Source of the DNA: Eubacteriales bacterium
GTDB taxonomy: Bacteria > Bacillota > Clostridia > Oscillospirales > CAG-382
Direction of reading: 5' to 3'
Assembly (NCBI GenBank): GCA_050953105.1
Contig: JBMNMA010000007.1
Coordinates: 198,923 to 262,922 of the forward strand
DNA: 64,000 nucleotides
This document shows, piece by piece, positions 3,848 to 52,495 of this stretch. The position numbers and the translations under genes are program-made. Under the pieces are notes generated by a model. The model saw only the letters and a list, made by a program, of their open reading frames with translations. It was not told the origin of the DNA and made no database searches. Numbering within the stretch: position 1 is the first letter of the stretch; every line of letters begins with the position of its first letter.

Positions 3848-4730
3848 AACAGTCAATGCCGAAAAAACGGCAGTCCTTGAAAGCCGGCTTGAACAGCTGC
3901 TGACACCAAAGGAAAAAGCGGGAAAAGCCCTTTATGAAGCCATGGCCTATTCCACCTTGAACGGGGGAAAGCGGGTCAGGGCAATGCTTGCATTTTTGTT
4001 TTGTCAGGCGGTTCCGGGCGACGGCGACTGGCTGAAAGTCCTTGATTATGCTGCGGCGGTGGAGATGATTCACGCCGCATCCCTTATCCACGACGATCTT
4101 CCCGCCATGGACAATGACGATTTCCGCCGGGGCAAACCCTCCAACCATAAGGTTTACGGCGAGGCGGGGGCAATTCTTGCCGGGGATGGACTTATAATCA
4201 AAGCCTTTGAGGTTGCTGCGTCAAACCCTTTTTGCACACCTGCCCAAAATATGAAAGCGGTGGGAATTTTAGCTTCCAGAACCGGTGCCGACGGTATGAC
4301 GGCAGGCCAGATGCTTGATATCTACGGCGATGAAAGCAAAATTGACGGAGAAACCCTCAAAACACTCCATACCTTAAAAACCTCCTGCCTTATATCGGCA
4401 GCCTGCATGTTAGGATGTGTTGCCGCAGGCGGCAGCGAAATACAACAAAAAGCCGCAGAGGAATTCGGCATCTGTCTTGGCCTTGCTTTTCAGATAAAAG
4501 ACGATATTCTTGACATTGAAGGGGATTTTGAAAAAATGGGCAAAACCCCCGGCAAGGATGCAAAGGAAAACAAAGCCACTTATCCCGCATTGTTCGGGCT
4601 TGAAAAATCCCGTAAAATGTGCGGTGAACTGACCGAAAGGGCGGTAGCGGCCCTGTCGGAATTTGGCGATAGTGCGGCGGCAGAAGAATTAAAAAATCTT
4701 GCCTTCCGTCTGCTTGACAGAAAATTTTAA
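3840..4730 (+). CDS. ispA: (2E,6E)-farnesyl diphosphate synthase / polyprenyl synthetase
   Basis: Two Asp-rich motifs, 'LIHDDLPAMDNDDFRRGKP' and 'FQIKDDILD'. I placed the start at ATG 3840, overlapping the xseB stop, rather than at the ORF-track ATG 3690, which would overlap all of xseB. Confidence 0.85.
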   Translation: MPETVNAEKTAVLESRLEQLLTPKEKAGKALYEAMAYSTLNGGKRVRAMLAFLFCQAVPGDGDWLKVLDYAAAVEMIHAASLIHDDLPAMDNDDFRRGKPSNHKVYGEAGAILAGDGLIIKAFEVAASNPFCTPAQNMKAVGILASRTGADGMTAGQMLDIYGDESKIDGETLKTLHTLKTSCLISAACMLGCVAAGGSEIQQKAAEEFGICLGLAFQIKDDILDIEGDFEKMGKTPGKDAKENKATYPALFGLEKSRKMCGELTERAVAALSEFGDSAAAEELKNLAFRLLDRKF

Positions 4731-40724: not shown

Positions 40725-41198
40725 GTGAAAAAGAAAATAACCGAAACCATCAGAGACGTGCTTGAAAGTTTAAAGAACGGTGAAGTAGGCCTTGACGAGG
40801 CCCAAAACCTTATCGAGGTGCTTGTCGCCGATAAGGTTATAGAAAAGTCAATAAAATGGCAGGACGACGGCGGTATAAGAATTGCGGTGTTCAAAGGAAG
40901 AAGTCTTATCCGCAACAGCGACCGGGACAACCTCCAGTGTGACATTACCTTTACCGGCGAACCCCTTAATGTTTACTGCGACCATTCCCTTACGGTAAAG
41001 GGGAACGTTATCGGCTCGGCCGTTGCGGGCCATTCCCTTAAATGCGAAGGCTTTGTCGGCGGCGATGCCAAGGCGGGCCATTCCATAAACTGCGGTGACG
41101 TTAAAAATAACGTCAAAGCCGGCCATAAAGTAAGCTGTGGCAGCGTAGGCGGCAATATAACCGCCGGTCACGGTGTCAGCTTTTCGGGAAAAGGCTGA
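40725..41198 (+). CDS. SHOCT-like N-terminal helix + beta-helix-type repeat protein with a His/Cys ladder
   Basis: GTG start follows a GGAGGTG RBS. 'ETIRDVLESLKNGEVGLDEAQNLIEVL' is SHOCT-like. Five repeats of 15-16 residues carry '(A/C)(G/D)H' and three carry HxxxC. Confidence 0.55.
   Translation: MKKKITETIRDVLESLKNGEVGLDEAQNLIEVLVADKVIEKSIKWQDDGGIRIAVFKGRSLIRNSDRDNLQCDITFTGEPLNVYCDHSLTVKGNVIGSAVAGHSLKCEGFVGGDAKAGHSINCGDVKNNVKAGHKVSCGSVGGNITAGHGVSFSGKG
40974..41195 (+). repeat. five tandem ~45-48-bp coding repeats (xAGHxxxCGxVxxx units)
   Basis: His at residues 87, 103, 119, 134 and 149. Cys at residues 85, 107, 123 and 138. Confidence 0.85.
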
Positions 41199-41404: not shown

Positions 41405-42601
41405 ATGGATAGAATTATAATTCATTGTGATTGCAACAGCTTTTTCGCCTCGGTTGAGACGGTGGCCCATCCCGAATACAAAAATGTCCCCATGGCGGTG
41501 TGCGGCAGCAAGGAGGAACGGCACGGCGTTGTCCTTGCCAAAAACGAACTTGCCAAAAAAAGCGGTGTGGCCACCGGGGAGGTTATCTGGCAGGCAAAGC
41601 AGAAATGTCCCGCTCTGGTGGTGGTTCCCCCCCATCATCAGCTTTATGAGGAATATTCCCGGGAAGTAAACCGCATCTACGGCGACTACACCGATATGAT
41701 AGAGCCTTTCGGCATAGACGAATCCTGGCTTGATGTTACCGGTTCCACCAACCTTTTCGGCAGCGGCAAGAAAATCGCCGACGAAATAAGACACCGGATA
41801 AAAACCGAGCTGGGGATAACCGTATCCGCCGGGGTGTCTTTTAACAAAACCTTTGCAAAGCTGGGGAGCGACTATAAAAAGCCGGATGCCACCACGGTAA
41901 TAACACGGGAAACCTACAAGCGGATACTTTATCCTCTCCCGGTGGGGGATATGATGTATATCGGCCGCCATACGGTGCCAAAGCTTAAAATGCTGGGGAT
42001 AAACACCATAGGCGACCTTGCCAATACCGACGTGGAGGTGCTTATATCCATGTTCGGCAAGGCGGGCAAGGCATTACACGATGCCTGCCACGGCAGGGAT
42101 GAAAGTATCGTCCATACCGAGCCGGCGGCACCAAAGTCCTTCGGCAACGGCATGACCTTTTTGCGGGATCTAAAGGGGGAGGAGGATTTCAGAAAGGCAA
42201 TAACCTTCCTTGCCGATAAAGCCACTACCCGTATGCGTGAGGCAAAGGCAAAATGCCGGGTGGTAAGCGTTATGATACGGGACACCTCCCTTAAAATGAT
42301 AACCCGGCAGAAAAAGTTGCCTTTTCCCACCTCGTCGGTCAAAACGGTGGAGGAAGCGGCAATAAGTCTTGTGCTGGCAAACTGGAACATGTCCGTCCCC
42401 GTCAGATCCTTACAGGTGGCCTGCTGCGACCTGGTGGAGGAGGATAAAATCGCCACCCAGCTTTGCCTTTTCTATACTCCGGAGGAGATTAGGGAGGAAA
42501 AGCGGTCAAACCTTGATCGTGAAACCGACCGTATCCGTTCCCTCTACGGCAGGCATATAATAACCAGAGCCTCCCTTCTTGTTAACGACCTGGGAATATA
42601 A
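41405..42601 (+). CDS. dinB: DNA polymerase IV (Y-family)
   Basis: 'IIHCDCNSFFASVE', 'GIDESWLDVTG' and 'SAGVSFNKTFAKLGSD'. Confidence 0.9.
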   Translation: MDRIIIHCDCNSFFASVETVAHPEYKNVPMAVCGSKEERHGVVLAKNELAKKSGVATGEVIWQAKQKCPALVVVPPHHQLYEEYSREVNRIYGDYTDMIEPFGIDESWLDVTGSTNLFGSGKKIADEIRHRIKTELGITVSAGVSFNKTFAKLGSDYKKPDATTVITRETYKRILYPLPVGDMMYIGRHTVPKLKMLGINTIGDLANTDVEVLISMFGKAGKALHDACHGRDESIVHTEPAAPKSFGNGMTFLRDLKGEEDFRKAITFLADKATTRMREAKAKCRVVSVMIRDTSLKMITRQKKLPFPTSSVKTVEEAAISLVLANWNMSVPVRSLQVACCDLVEEDKIATQLCLFYTPEEIREEKRSNLDRETDRIRSLYGRHIITRASLLVNDLGI

Positions 42602-42645: not shown

Positions 42646-42674
42646 TTGACCGTAATAATAATAAATGATATAAT
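42646..42674 (+). promoter_or_regulatory. strong sigma-A type promoter upstream of the DUF559 cassette
   Basis: TTGACC (42646-42651), 17 nt, TGaTATAAT (42666-42674). Confidence 0.7.
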
Positions 42675-42744
42675 TTGATTTAATCCAACATAACGGTTAG
42701 CAATACGCTGCTGCAGAGGCACTAACATGGAATAAATGCAAAAA

Positions 42745-42794
42745 GCCTTCCGACTTTCGGGGAAGGGGGACCGCGTCAGCGGTGGATGAGGGGT
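42745..42794 (+). repeat. left arm of the inverted repeat flanking the DUF559 gene
   Basis: 'GCCTTCCGACTTTCGGGGAAGG GGGACCGCGTCAGCGGT GGATGAGGGGT'. Hairpin A is the first 22 nt and hairpin B is ACCGC-gtca-GCGGT. Confidence 0.9.
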
Positions 42795-42955
42795 TATATA
42801 CGACCATACGGGAAAGAATAGAGTACGAATGAAATACAGCCTTCCGGGTGGATTAAATCCGCCTACGGCAAAATTCAGAATACAATAATCTACTTTCTTG
42901 CGTTACACATCAGCACCTATAACATAAAAATTAAGCTTTAATTTATGAGGTGCCT

Positions 42956-43339
42956 ATGCGTTATCTTCCAAGAAATATAAAAATCAAAGAAGTCAGTCAA
43001 ACACTCCGTAAAAACATGACCAAAGAGGAAAAACATCTTTGGTATGACTTCCTTCGCACCTATCCCGTCCAGTTTTACCGCCAAAAAATTATAGGAAACT
43101 ACATAATTGATTTTTATTGCCCTTCGGCAAAGCTTGCTGTTGAAATCGACGGTTATCACCATTTGGACGAGAGCAAAGTAAATAAAGATATAAAAAGAAC
43201 AGAATATCTAAGCGAATTTGAAATCACCGTAATTCGTTTTTGGAATTTTGAAATACATAAATCCTTTGACTATGTTTGTAATACAATAGATGCCATGGTT
43301 AAGAAGCTGACCGGGCAAGCAGAGCCGGAATTTTTATAA
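42956..43339 (+). CDS. DUF559 domain endonuclease (Vsr/restriction-endonuclease-like fold)
   Basis: 'YPVQFYRQKIIGNYIIDFYCPSAKLAVEIDGYHH...RTEYLSEFEITVIRFWNFEI' is the typical DUF559 core. I placed the start at ATG 42956 after a GAGGTG RBS. Confidence 0.8.
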   Translation: MRYLPRNIKIKEVSQTLRKNMTKEEKHLWYDFLRTYPVQFYRQKIIGNYIIDFYCPSAKLAVEIDGYHHLDESKVNKDIKRTEYLSEFEITVIRFWNFEIHKSFDYVCNTIDAMVKKLTGQAEPEFL

Positions 43340-43409
43340 GCTGCTATTGCGGTATCATACGAATGCAACTGTAATTTCGGGGTAATTTTGTCGCTGCAAA
43401 GCGGATGCT

Positions 43410-43460
43410 ACCCCTCATCCGTCAGCCTTCGGCTGCCACCTTCCCCGAAAGTCGGAAGGC
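43410..43460 (-). repeat. right arm of the inverted repeat flanking the DUF559 gene
   Basis: The reverse complement reads 'GCCTTCCGACTTTCGGGGAAGG TGGCAGCCGAAGGCTGAC GGATGAGGGGT'. The 22 and 11 terminal nt are identical to the left arm. The centre differs in sequence but still forms a hairpin (CAGCC-gaa-GGCTG). Confidence 0.9.
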
Positions 43461-43562
43461 TAAATTTAAAATTCACCTTCCAGCGTCTGCATAAAATAGC
43501 ATCTTACTCAATTTGCGATATTTTACTTTTACATAAATTAATATCACACACGGAGAAATACA

Positions 43563-45206
43563 ATGGACTATAACAGACTTGCCGAAATGCTTTTTCCCGA
43601 CATAACCGAAACACCCGAATATTACGAGGAAAAATATCCCCCCCGCAACCTTCCCGAAGGGGCGATAGTAACACGCCTTGCCCCCTCCCCTACGGGTTTT
43701 GTCCATCTGGGGAACATCCTTCAAGGGCTTACCTCCGAGCGGATGGCTCACCAGTCCGGCGGGGTGCTTTTCTTGCGCATAGAGGACACCGACGCCAAGC
43801 GGGAGGTTAAGGGTGCGGTTAAGGCCTTAATCGACGGGCTTAAATACTGCGGTATAACCTTTGACGAAGGCGCCACCGCCGACGGGGATTTCGGCAGCTA
43901 CGGTCCCTACCGCCAGCGACAACGGGTTAAAATCTACCATTGCTATGCCAAGGTTCTTGTCCAAAAGGGAATGGCCTACCCCTGCTTTGCCACCGCCGAA
44001 GAGCTTGACGAAATAAGAAATAAACAGCAGGAACTGAAATGCGATCTCGGTTACTACGGCCAATGGGCCAAATGGCGGGACAGAAGCATTGAGGACATTC
44101 AGGCCCAGCTTGACAAGGGAACACCCTGGGTTTTGCGCTTCCGCACCGACGGCAACCGGTTAAACAAGCACCCCTTTGACGACCTTATAAAGGGAAGGGT
44201 TGAAATAACCGAAAACGACATCGACCATGTGCTGTTAAAATCCGACGGCATTCCCACCTATCACTTCGCCCACGCCGTGGACGACCACCTTATGCAGACC
44301 ACACACGTGGTGAGGGGGGACGAATGGCTGCCTTCCCTGCCTTTCCATATACAGCTTTTCAAAGCCCTTGATTTTAAACTGCCCAAATACCTCCACATCG
44401 GCCCCCTTATGAAGATGGACGGCACCTCCAAGCGCAAGCTTTCAAAGCGCAAGGACCCGGAAATCGCCCTTTCCTTCTACAAAAAGATGGGTTATCCCGT
44501 GGAGGCAATAAACGAATACATGCTTACCATCCTCAATTCCAATTTTGAGGACTGGCGGCGTCAAAACCCCGACAAACCCATTGATGAATTTAAATTTTCA
44601 TATAAAAAGATGAATCCCGCAGGCTCGTTGTTTGACGAAGCCAAGTTCAGGGACGTTTCTAAAAACGTCATTTCAAAATTCACCGCCGAAAGAGTGTTTG
44701 AATCTACCCTTAATTGGGCGGAAGAGTTTGACAAACCCTTTGCCGATGTCCTTTCAAACAATAAAGAAAGGGCAATAAACGCCTTGAATATCGGCCGGGG
44801 AGGCAACAAGCCCCGCAAGGATATAGCCGCCTGGAGCGAGGTTAAGGATTATATAGGCTTTATCTTTGACGAATGTTTTGAAATTGTCGACAACCTTGAC
44901 AGCTATGACAAGGCGGACGTTAAAGCCATACTGACAGAGTTTGTAAAAACCTATTCGGCCGGTGACGACCAGAACACATGGTTTGCCAAAATCAAGGAAA
45001 ATGGAGCAAAATACGGCTACTGCCCCGACATGAAGGAGTATAAAGCCAATCCCGAAAACTATAAGGGAAGCGTAGCAGACGTTTCGTCGTTTATCCGCAT
45101 TGCGGTAACCGGCCGGCTTAACTCCCCCGACCTGTATGCCATAATGCAAATTATCGGAGAAGGCGAAACGGCAAAACGAATTGATAAATTTAAGGAGACA
45201 TTATAA
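43563..45206 (+). CDS. gltX: glutamate--tRNA ligase
   Basis: 547 aa with HIGH-type 'PSPTGFVHLGN', 'LRIEDTD' and KMSKS-type 'KLSKRK'. Confidence 0.9.
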   Translation: MDYNRLAEMLFPDITETPEYYEEKYPPRNLPEGAIVTRLAPSPTGFVHLGNILQGLTSERMAHQSGGVLFLRIEDTDAKREVKGAVKALIDGLKYCGITFDEGATADGDFGSYGPYRQRQRVKIYHCYAKVLVQKGMAYPCFATAEELDEIRNKQQELKCDLGYYGQWAKWRDRSIEDIQAQLDKGTPWVLRFRTDGNRLNKHPFDDLIKGRVEITENDIDHVLLKSDGIPTYHFAHAVDDHLMQTTHVVRGDEWLPSLPFHIQLFKALDFKLPKYLHIGPLMKMDGTSKRKLSKRKDPEIALSFYKKMGYPVEAINEYMLTILNSNFEDWRRQNPDKPIDEFKFSYKKMNPAGSLFDEAKFRDVSKNVISKFTAERVFESTLNWAEEFDKPFADVLSNNKERAINALNIGRGGNKPRKDIAAWSEVKDYIGFIFDECFEIVDNLDSYDKADVKAILTEFVKTYSAGDDQNTWFAKIKENGAKYGYCPDMKEYKANPENYKGSVADVSSFIRIAVTGRLNSPDLYAIMQIIGEGETAKRIDKFKETL

Positions 45207-51245: not shown

Positions 51246-52495
51246 CCGATATTCTGACGATTATTCTTATTTTTATATTTATTGTCCTTTCGGCATTTTA
51301 TTCTTCGGCAGAGATTGCCTTTGCCAAGGCTAACGCCATAAGGATAAAAAAGCAGGCAGAAAGCGGCGACAAAGCCGCAATGCATGAAAAATATATAAAC
51401 GACAATTACACCCGTTCGCTGTCAACCCTGCTTGTGGGCAACAACATGGTGAATATAGCCGCTTCCTCTGCGGCAACGGTGATTTTTGTCCATTACTTGG
51501 GCGAATCCAAGGGACCGACGGTGGCTTCGGCTGTTTTAACCATAGTTTTGCTTATATTCGGCGAAACCCTGCCCAAAATCCTTGCATCCACCATCCCAGA
51601 CCAACTTGCAAGGCTGTATGCCCGGCCCCTCAGGTTTTTCATGGTTGTTTTCTTCCCCATAGTCTGGGCGGTGGAAAAGCTGGTTAACCTTGTGTCCCCC
51701 CTGTGGACACCCAAGGAAAAGGCTCCCCTGGTCACCGCAGAGGAGCTGTATGAAATCGTGGACAATATCGAAGGTGAAGGGGTTTTCACCGAGGACGAAG
51801 GCGAGCTTATAAAGTCGGCCATTGAATTTACCGACACCACCGCAATGGATATCCTTGTCCCCAGGGTGGACGTTTTCGCCATAGACATTGATGAAGAAAT
51901 TACAATAACCGATGAATTTTACCGTTATTCCCGAATTCCCGTTTACAGAGATAGCATAGACAACATTGTGGGCATTCTGCCTACGAAAAAGCTGCTAAGA
52001 GAAATCGCCGCAGGCAACGAGTATAATATTGAAGAATTGCTGTATCCCCCTATTTTCGTTCACATGACCAAAACCGTTTCGTCAATTATCGACGAATTCC
52101 GCAAAAAGCATCAGCAGCTTGCGGTGGTGGTGGACGAATACGGCGGCACGGCGGGAATCCTCACCATGGAGGACATTACCGAAGAGATTGTAGGGGACAT
52201 TTTTGACGAGCGGGACCTTGTGGAGGACGATATCCGCCAAATAGGGGAGAACGTCTACGAGGTAGACGGTTCCACAAACATTTACGACCTGTTCGACACT
52301 CTTGACTGGGAACCCAACGACTTTGAAACCGAATACACCACGGTGGGCGGCTGGGTTACCGAAATGCTCGACAAATTTCCAGAAACCGGAGACACCTTCA
52401 CCTATCTGCGGATAACCGTAACGGTGGAGGAGGCAAAGTCCATGCGGGTTGAAAAGGTAAGGGTTGAATACACCCCTCCCGCAGAAGAAGAATAA
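51242..52495 (+). CDS. hemolysin-family CNNM (DUF21) + CBS pair + CorC_HlyC domain protein
   Basis: 417 aa with the same architecture plus the C-terminal transporter-associated domain. It overlaps the upstream stop (ATGA). Confidence 0.85.
   Translation: MTDILTIILIFIFIVLSAFYSSAEIAFAKANAIRIKKQAESGDKAAMHEKYINDNYTRSLSTLLVGNNMVNIAASSAATVIFVHYLGESKGPTVASAVLTIVLLIFGETLPKILASTIPDQLARLYARPLRFFMVVFFPIVWAVEKLVNLVSPLWTPKEKAPLVTAEELYEIVDNIEGEGVFTEDEGELIKSAIEFTDTTAMDILVPRVDVFAIDIDEEITITDEFYRYSRIPVYRDSIDNIVGILPTKKLLREIAAGNEYNIEELLYPPIFVHMTKTVSSIIDEFRKKHQQLAVVVDEYGGTAGILTMEDITEEIVGDIFDERDLVEDDIRQIGENVYEVDGSTNIYDLFDTLDWEPNDFETEYTTVGGWVTEMLDKFPETGDTFTYLRITVTVEEAKSMRVEKVRVEYTPPAEEE

Follow-up and report, generated by a model that had tools for sequence, protein, structure and literature searches.

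A DUF559 nuclease gene inside a head-to-head pair of dispersed two-hairpin repeats in the gltX leader of a Eubacteriales bacterium

The DNA analysed here is a 64-kb stretch from a Eubacteriales bacterium (contig JBMNMA010000007.1; the whole stretch is referred to as the window), in which a small gene of the DUF559 family lies between dinB (41405-42601) on one side and gltX-glnS (from 43563) on the other. The gene (42956-43339, + strand) encodes a 127-amino-acid nuclease of the Vsr-like PD-(D/E)XK fold (Pfam PF04480, E 2.6e-27), has its own GAGG ribosome-binding site, and is flanked by two arms in inverted orientation. The outer 22-mer of the arms, GCCTTCCGACTTTCGGGGAAGG, occurs at exactly two sites in the window (42745-42766 on the + strand and 43439-43460 on the - strand), even when three mismatches are allowed, and gave no match in shuffled window sequence. 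The inner 11-mer GGATGAGGGGT (42784-42794, +; 43410-43420, -) is not significant by itself, two matches being reached in 37 of 100 shuffles; a repeat search of the window returned inverted pairs of 26 nt (96% identical) and 11 nt (100%). The arm centres are unlike in sequence; both form a hairpin of 5 bp (ACCGC/GCGGT and CAGCC/GGCTG). The inverted arms, their identical outer and inner parts and their central hairpins, together with the bulged-hairpin nature of the 22-mer, had been pointed out in a sequence-only reading of the same DNA, and these facts hold. The data described here give good support to the following anatomy: a dispersed two-hairpin repeat under structural constraint forms a head-to-head doublet that encloses the DUF559 gene, and this cassette is here inserted in the gltX leader.

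Both arms are copies of a single repeat module. When the window was scored with a covariance model (R1) built from 59 modules at other loci, only two sites were significant, confirming that the DUF559 gene lies between inverted arms and setting the modules at ~55 nt. The left module (42742-42796, + strand; 31.3 bits, E 1.4e-9) is of subtype C or C-like (subtypes are described below), is also supported by its fold and by orthologous arms in the related loci L004 and L179, and consists of hairpin 1 (42746-42751 paired with 42761-42766), hairpin 2 (42770-42783, ACCGC-GTCA-GCGGT) and the 11-mer as tail. The right module (43408-43463, - strand; 48.2 bits, E 4.8e-16) is inverted and of an A-like subtype with a GGATGAGGGG tail, and is likewise supported by its fold and by an identical subtype in L003, L004 and L179. 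On the + strand it reads as the tail complement (43410-43420), CGTC (43420-43423), hairpin 2 (43423-43435), CCA (43436-43438) and hairpin 1 (43439-43459). Beyond the left module the repeat unit is extended (42795-42880, +) by a stretch that holds a third hairpin (42846-42864; fold of -15 kcal/mol, z -2.6), as seen in a ~130-nt alignment to the dispersed copies L203 and L200 and to a gene-less doublet of L004. What had been taken for a third partial copy of the arm at 42839-42869 is therefore not an arm copy, but the third hairpin of this longer (~130 nt) unit, which accompanies the left-arm subtype in dispersed copies. In the window region and seven canonical loci the arms were without a match to Rfam covariance models at E<=1, and an intrinsic-terminator scan of the window region returned none. 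A weak match to the covariance model at 51718-51787 (12.1 bits, E 0.03) lies within an apparent open frame and was taken as chance.

The same arrangement was found around related genes. Species-representative genomes were scanned with an alignment of 34 relatives, which yielded 80 loci, mostly from Clostridia metagenome-assembled genomes (MAGs), with some from Megasphaera and Chloroflexota. When the upstream flank was aligned with the reverse-complemented downstream flank, 62 of 84 cases scored 40 or more; in direct orientation 21 of 84 did so. The covariance model returned 257 matches in 636 kb of DUF559 loci, only 30 of which were more than 700 nt from the gene. With bracketing defined as a + module at most 200 nt upstream and a - module at most 200 nt downstream of the gene, 57 of the 75 related DUF559 genes with full flanks were bracketed and 72 had at least one arm, while the three genes without a canonical bracket had modules nearby in other arrangements. 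Co-occurrence of the arms with DUF559 is thus far beyond chance. In two loci the module tails face away from the DUF559 gene, the reverse of the canonical orientation (L071, 3911-3961 on the - and 4348-4398 on the + strand; L189, 1908-1965 on the - and 2428-2482 on the + strand).

The repeat unit of this family is composed of hairpin 1, hairpin 2 and a G-rich tail (GGAGGG or GGATGAGGGG), with strong covariation in both stems, and the canonical module reads AAAG-CCTCCCTT-GTGT-AAGGGAGG-TGG-CACGC-GAA-GCGTG-AC-GGAGGGATTGT. Subtype A has a TGG linker and a GGAGGG tail and is mostly found on the left; subtype B, mostly on the right, has a G-C closing pair, a TGT linker and a CTGAGGG tail that gives a TGA stop on the sense strand; subtype C is marked by GGGGGACC..GGTGGAGGG. 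The canonical modules reach into the gene's own signals. The left one ends in ...GACGGAGGGATTGTA directly 5' of the ATG, placing a GGAGGG Shine-Dalgarno sequence 6 nt before the start, and the gene's 3' end (...GTA GAA CAA TCC CTC AGT CAG CTT CGC TGA) has its last eight codons and stop within the right module, which continues into the outer hairpin and then a T run. Because the gene end runs into the right module, the protein alignment shows SLSQLR-type and longer low-complexity C-termini.

This anatomy could be read as expression signals only, with the modules acting as ordinary bidirectional terminators or stabilisers, one of which the gene borrowed as a ribosome-binding site and the other as a stop and terminator, without any relationship between enzyme and repeat. 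Besides the Shine-Dalgarno sequence in the left tail and the stop, hairpin and T run in the right module, the abundance of the module without the gene and its prevalence downstream of genes (see below) speak for such a reading. We nevertheless consider it quite unlikely, given that no other gene was bracketed among 233 modules in 730 kb of independently sampled contigs, as opposed to the 57 of 75 DUF559 genes; that the inverted left copy does not serve the gene as a terminator; that the right arm in the window lineage lacks a T run and must be read through for gltX; and that typical RNA elements are not so nearly devoid of G-U pairs.

The structural constraint on the module is visible in compensatory change. 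Pairs were counted on the 150 best matches from DUF559 loci and on 150 matches from contigs picked by the hairpin-1 word only; the fit of the alignments to the model biases the count towards the structure, but hairpin 2 played no part in picking the second, independent set. On that footing, 93.2% of cells were paired in the DUF559 loci and 96.9% in the independent set, 12 and 13 of the 15 pairs, respectively, had changed on both sides, and 307 and 295 cells were compensatory, against about 92 in shuffles for each set and at most 82 (DUF559 loci) and 57 (independent set) in slid controls. Double changes affected 6-7 of the 7 pairs of hairpin 2. The conservation and covariation of the arms among relatives, which the sequence-only reading had proposed to look for, were accordingly found.

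The pairing is within each arm. While 94.1% of within-arm positions paired, the left and right arms agreed in only 70.6% of stem columns and in 48.1% of those in hairpin 2, and in 31 of 41 loci hairpin 1 is closed by C-G in the left arm but by G-C in the right one. Given this within-arm pairing and the differing left and right arms, a long-range stem around the open reading frame (ORF), which had been put forward as one possible layout, is not what is conserved. A G-A mismatch within hairpin 2 is conserved in subtype A, being present in 69 of 134 distinct copies. TGAC|G or TGAC|T stands at the feet of hairpin 2, which gives CGTCA or AGTCA on the opposite strand. A strand test comparing G-T with A-C counts gave 18:2 in left and 5:1 in right arms, which are small numbers and biased by the model.

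At about 0.8% of cells G-U pairs are rare, as would be expected more of a palindrome at the level of DNA than of a typical RNA element. Almost purely Watson-Crick stems, and a hairpin 2 that varies freely in sequence yet stays paired, would also suit proofreading of the palindromes, in which a Vsr-like mismatch nickase cuts mismatched extruded stems and repair copies one stem half to the other, so that the repeats are kept perfect rather than moved; Vsr itself nicks at T/G mismatches (PMC3424549). This appears improbable to us, as its substrate is conjectural, the conserved G-A mismatch of subtype A might be expected to be removed, and the place of the gene inside the doublet would be left unexplained.

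At the dinB-gltX site, the nearest DUF559 relatives (99% and 69% identical) were found in seven other contigs. In the 69% relatives, hairpin 1 is the perfect CCTTCCCC-TGGA-GGGGAAGG, compared with the bulged CCTTCC-GACTTTCGG-GGAAGG of the window, and these relatives retain ACCGC..GCGGT in the left arm, GTCAGCC..GGCTGAC in the right arm and GGATGAGGGG in both; the orthologous left arms of L004 and L179 show a compensatory change in hairpin 1. The unlike arm centres, earlier viewed as structure-preserving divergence, instead represent two subtypes that the family conserves, and relatives retain each of them in the orthologous arm. L004 and the window share 82-88% identity in DinB, GltX and GlnS and 68.5% in the DUF559 protein; synonymous sites of the DUF559 gene are saturated, with a synonymous divergence (dS) of 1.9 and a nonsynonymous-to-synonymous ratio (dN/dS) of 0.10, and the non-coding DNA between arms and gene cannot be aligned while the arms are nearly unchanged. 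The cassette has thus been retained in the window lineage while synonymous sites became saturated. The number of left-arm copies differs among close relatives (one, two or three).

The site was filled, with the cassette present, in L003-L007 and in L179 (an 82% relative), and empty in more distant relatives (L180, with GltX 76% identical, and L181-L183, 69%), where the promoter, a ~110-nt leader and gltX were found without DUF559 gene or module. The promoter in question is a sigma-70-type TTGACC-N17-TATAAT with an extended -10 TG (42646-42674, + strand; 11 of 12 consensus matches), which is kept 3' of dinB in all relatives, among them L004 and L179, which have the cassette, and L180 and L181, which do not, and is likely the gltX-glnS promoter, now upstream of the cassette. 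Since relatives with 69-76% identical GltX lack both gene and arms, the cassette represents an insertion between the gltX promoter and gltX. An empty site, which had been suggested as a check together with target-site duplication, was therefore found, but the duplication was not seen. In L004 the right arm lies only 24 nt from the gltX ATG and has no T run, from which we infer that gltX is transcribed through the cassette. A base-level insertion junction could not be placed because the leaders of the empty sites are too diverged to align at this level of GltX identity, and the region downstream of glnS, considered as a second empty site, allowed no comparison because synteny breaks there. gltX itself (43563-45206, + strand; glutamate-tRNA ligase, Pfam tRNA-synt_1c), in whose leader the cassette sits, is context outside the element.

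The inverted repeats might also serve as an invertible switch that flips the gene segment, and DUF559 is indeed enriched (odds ratio 14.3) among predicted programmed-inversion targets (PMC9881135). In addition, one left-arm copy bears the right-arm hairpin 2 in L003 (3665-3719), L005 and L006, producing a perfect 58-nt inverted repeat and suggesting sequence exchange between the arms. A switch is nonetheless highly improbable: all seven related contigs have the same orientation at the locus, no recombinase gene is adjacent, and repeated inversion would scramble the two arms, which are systematically of different subtypes in the 31 of 41 loci mentioned above. Inverted repeats that overlap the gene ends probably account for the listing of DUF559 as a 'programmed inversion target' in inverted-repeat surveys (PMC9881135). 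In a strain 99% identical to the window (L001, 1660-1790), short hairpins follow one another between extra left-arm copies, with GTTATATTG separating them.

Cassettes also occur in many other contexts, 82 loci falling into 70 groups by flanking proteins. Cassettes with 88-91% identical DNA were found in unrelated contexts, with homology beginning 0-2 nt from the outer end of the left arm. Among cassettes in unrelated contexts dN/dS is 0.04-0.06 at a dS of 0.5-1.1, so that the spread is old and the protein strongly constrained, and the arms stay near-identical across dS values of 0.5-1.9. In six of these loci (L030, L035, L037, L041, L063 and L069) a three-hairpin block ~130 nt past the right arm, the last hairpin with a T run, travels with the cassette across unrelated contexts. 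A three-hairpin array between the DUF559 right arm and a gene-less doublet of L027 (4682-4757, - strand) matches the Gut-1 RNA family at 41 bits, which is below the gathering score of 50. Hairpin repeats of different kinds seem to occur in clusters.

The module is not confined to DUF559 genes. A viral-contig collection was sampled by the hairpin-1 19-mer, giving 90 exact-match stretches (730 kb) in which the covariance model found the 233 modules already mentioned. These included 21 head-to-head doublets less than 150 nt apart, and no head-to-head module pairs at 150-2500 nt, so that no other gene was bracketed. Another 30 gene-less head-to-head doublets, with spacers of 6-115 nt, were found within the DUF559 loci. 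The window 22-mer was present in 20 copies in 18 metagenome stretches, all of them full modules, and these copies share ~130 nt with the left side of the window, including the third hairpin; roughly 43 modules and two DUF559 genes were found in the 181 kb around them. Of the suspicion that the 22-mer might be a generic repeat unrelated to DUF559 genes, the first half thus stands, the 22-mer being a dispersed REP-like (repetitive extragenic palindromic) sequence, and the second does not, as the module is not unrelated to DUF559 genes. A gene-orientation test showed a mild preference of modules for positions downstream of genes, on both sides. An ORF-geometry test around gene-less modules was uninformative, because TTG in the tail and a high GC content give rise to ORFs that are spurious, and a random control reached equally high scores.

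The gene-less doublets bring to mind a free-standing homing endonuclease, encoded by a gene parasitic on the repeat, whose product cuts the centre of a gene-less doublet so that the gene is copied in by repair with the modules as homology arms. The gene does fill exactly the place of the spacer in gene-less doublets, more than one copy can be found per genome (L026 and L045 derive from one MAG, and L019 holds two), and the protein has homing-endonuclease relatives (see below). Yet such homing seems unlikely: doublet spacers are not conserved over their 6-115 nt and offer no fixed target across the insertion point, the dS of 0.5-1 between copies indicates no recent spread, and the 21 doublets in 730 kb were accompanied by no DUF559 gene.

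To our knowledge, DUF559 is a very large family with a solved structure and no known role. The window protein scored 95.3 bits against Pfam PF04480 (cut-off 20.6), Pfam giving DUF559 and MTES_1575 only, and belongs to the DUF559 equivalog family of NCBIfam. Profile matches were obtained to the solved DUF559 structure (PDB 3hrl, E 2.8e-22), to the Vsr-fold homing endonuclease I-Bth0305I (3r3p, E 5.7e-4) and to a PHROGs 'homing endonuclease' family (E 1.9e-8). All 34 relatives share D52, E63, D65 and H69 without variation, and the window protein has them too. PADLOC returned domain-level nuclease matches only and no defence system. Without an adjacent methyltransferase gene, the protein is unlikely to act as a classical Vsr.

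Taken together, the layout, the fold and the precedent of REP sequences with their REP-associated tyrosine transposases (RAYT) suggest, at about even odds in our judgement, a REP/RAYT-like arrangement in which a Vsr-fold nuclease replaces the tyrosine transposase; the anatomy of this arrangement is observed directly, and the action of the nuclease on the hairpins is its conjectural part. The nuclease would be made from transcripts reading in through the left module, which is not a terminator in that direction. It might recognise hairpins of its own family that are extruded in single-stranded or supercoiled DNA, and might nick them at the hairpin foot or at mismatches. Such nicking would spread gene-less doublets in trans or keep doublets homogeneous. 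The likeness to REP/RAYT pairs noted in the sequence-only reading fits the dispersed copies, the head-to-head doublets and the single nuclease gene nested in a doublet.

Several observations weigh against a REP/RAYT-like arrangement of this kind. The window copy is looser than the canonical one, with the left arm 160 nt before the ATG, the right arm 70 nt after the stop and a ribosome-binding site of its own. In the canonical subgroup, the homology of cassettes from unrelated contexts continues beyond the right arm for 120-145 nt before it ends, taking in three further hairpins of which one resembles a terminator, and no direct repeats or target-site duplications were seen around doublets or cassettes. 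A dS of 0.5-1 between cassettes argues against recent jumps. A tblastn search with 34 DUF559 queries found no DUF559 gene in the 730 kb of viral-collection contigs, and none of the 20 copies of the window 22-mer adjoins such a gene, the nearest being 1.6 kb off; as most copies have no DUF559 gene nearby, the repeat could spread by another route. Finally, the DUF559 loci were picked by protein, and the counts of modules and genes refer to contigs and loci rather than to whole genomes. A transposon bounded by terminal inverted repeats, also among the earlier suggestions, was rejected on the missing target-site duplication and on the conserved unit overrunning the right arm by these 120-145 nt in the canonical, best-resolved subgroup, although the left boundary is sharp at the arm.

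We know of REP-like repeats without a known enzyme as a long-standing loose end. The precise nesting described here links the role of DUF559 with such orphan REP-like repeats in one shared and cheaply testable hypothesis, namely that the nuclease acts on its own flanking hairpins. In practical terms, the repeat adds spurious C-terminal tails to annotated DUF559 proteins, and it breaks metagenome assemblies: those of the 99% identical strain are broken within the right arm. Contig ends or runs of N inside arms were seen in L184 (1-32), L185, L001 (1596-1605) and L003 (3814-3900).

Elsewhere in the window, a 157-amino-acid ORF at 40725-41198 has a repetitive G/H-rich C-terminal half and no Pfam match. 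Its counterparts adjoin dinB in all relatives (154-161 amino acids, with no Pfam match either).

In the literature that could be searched, no description of an association between DUF559 and repeats was found. The arrangement was compared with known systems feature by feature. With miniature inverted-repeat transposable elements and their parent insertion sequences it shares the existence of gene-bearing and gene-less forms with the same inverted ends. It differs from them in having no transposase of a known class and no target-site duplication, and in ends that are hairpins and, in one subgroup, not strictly terminal. I-Bth0305I, other Vsr-fold homing endonucleases and E. coli Vsr have the same catalytic fold and the motif D...ExD...H, and the known activity of this group is site- or mismatch-specific DNA nicking or cleavage (PMC3424549). 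Unlike these enzymes, the protein described here has no intron or intein context and no partner cytosine methyltransferase, and is a bare domain of ~120 amino acids without extra DNA-binding domains.

The closest parallel in layout is offered by REPtrons, which combine a RAYT with REP sequences or their doublets (REPINs). Both systems have palindromic repeats in many dispersed and mostly extragenic copies, often as inverted doublets, and one small nuclease-type gene flanked by inverted repeat copies, with gene-less copies far outnumbering gene-bearing ones. On the other hand, the enzyme is of the Vsr/DUF559 PD-(D/E)XK fold here and an HUH/Y1 tyrosine transposase there; the unit here comprises two hairpins and a G-rich tail and has no GTAG tag at the hairpin foot; the repeat here overlaps the ribosome-binding site and stop codon of the gene; and the hosts are Bacillota and Chloroflexota, as compared with mainly Proteobacteria. 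As enzyme family and tag differ, the element is not a member of the REPtrons.

A further resemblance concerns the CGTC-tagged REPs of Di Nocera et al. (2013), which form head-to-head dimers and are said to 'lack a dedicated transposase' (PMC3733652). They have an unpaired CGTC (or TGTC/CCTC) tag at one end and end in a CCA tail at the other. On its other strand, the subtype A hairpin 2 reads as CGTC, a stem-loop and CCA (in the window CGTC-AGCC-TTCG-GCTG-CCA, 43420-43438), and in both families head-to-head dimers predominate and copies lie mostly downstream of genes. The hairpin-2 stems described here differ in being 4-8 bp long and beginning with C-G and A-T, whereas those of the CGTC REPs are 8-9 bp long, begin with two A-T pairs and enclose a loop of 4-5 nt; moreover, a second hairpin and a tail belong to the unit here, and about half of the copies have AGTC instead of CGTC. 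CGTCA...GCCAC was found in 44 of 134 and 21 of 118 distinct copies, and AGTCA...GACAG in a similar or larger share. CGTC REPs abound in Alphaproteobacteria, Neisseria and Cyanobacteria. We regard the resemblance to CGTC REPs as a lead, not as a shown relationship.

In E. coli K-12 (L178, NC_000913.3; 5200-5420 and 5758-5802), a GC-rich hairpin (CCCTCTCCC..GAGGGGG) contains the stop codon of the DUF559 gene ycjD and recurs in inverted orientation 154 nt further on. This GC-rich element occurs at a median of 16 places per E. coli genome. The covariance model scored 7.2 bits on the ycjD locus, which is not significant, so the E. coli repeat does not belong to the module family. A perfect 17-bp hairpin lies over the ycjD start. 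More speculatively, DUF559 proteins might supply the dedicated nuclease that is missing from a wide class of REP-like repeats across bacterial phyla, including the CGTC-type REPs and the GC-rich repeat at the ycjD stop, and might act on extruded hairpins to spread or proofread them, in what would be a second, independent REPIN-RAYT lifestyle based on a Vsr-fold nickase; we hold this wider view to be possible and rather doubtful. In E. coli, ycjD is reported to be present at sapF-fabI only in strains without the eefRABCD efflux operon, a presence/absence polymorphism around a DUF559 gene (PMC12817139).

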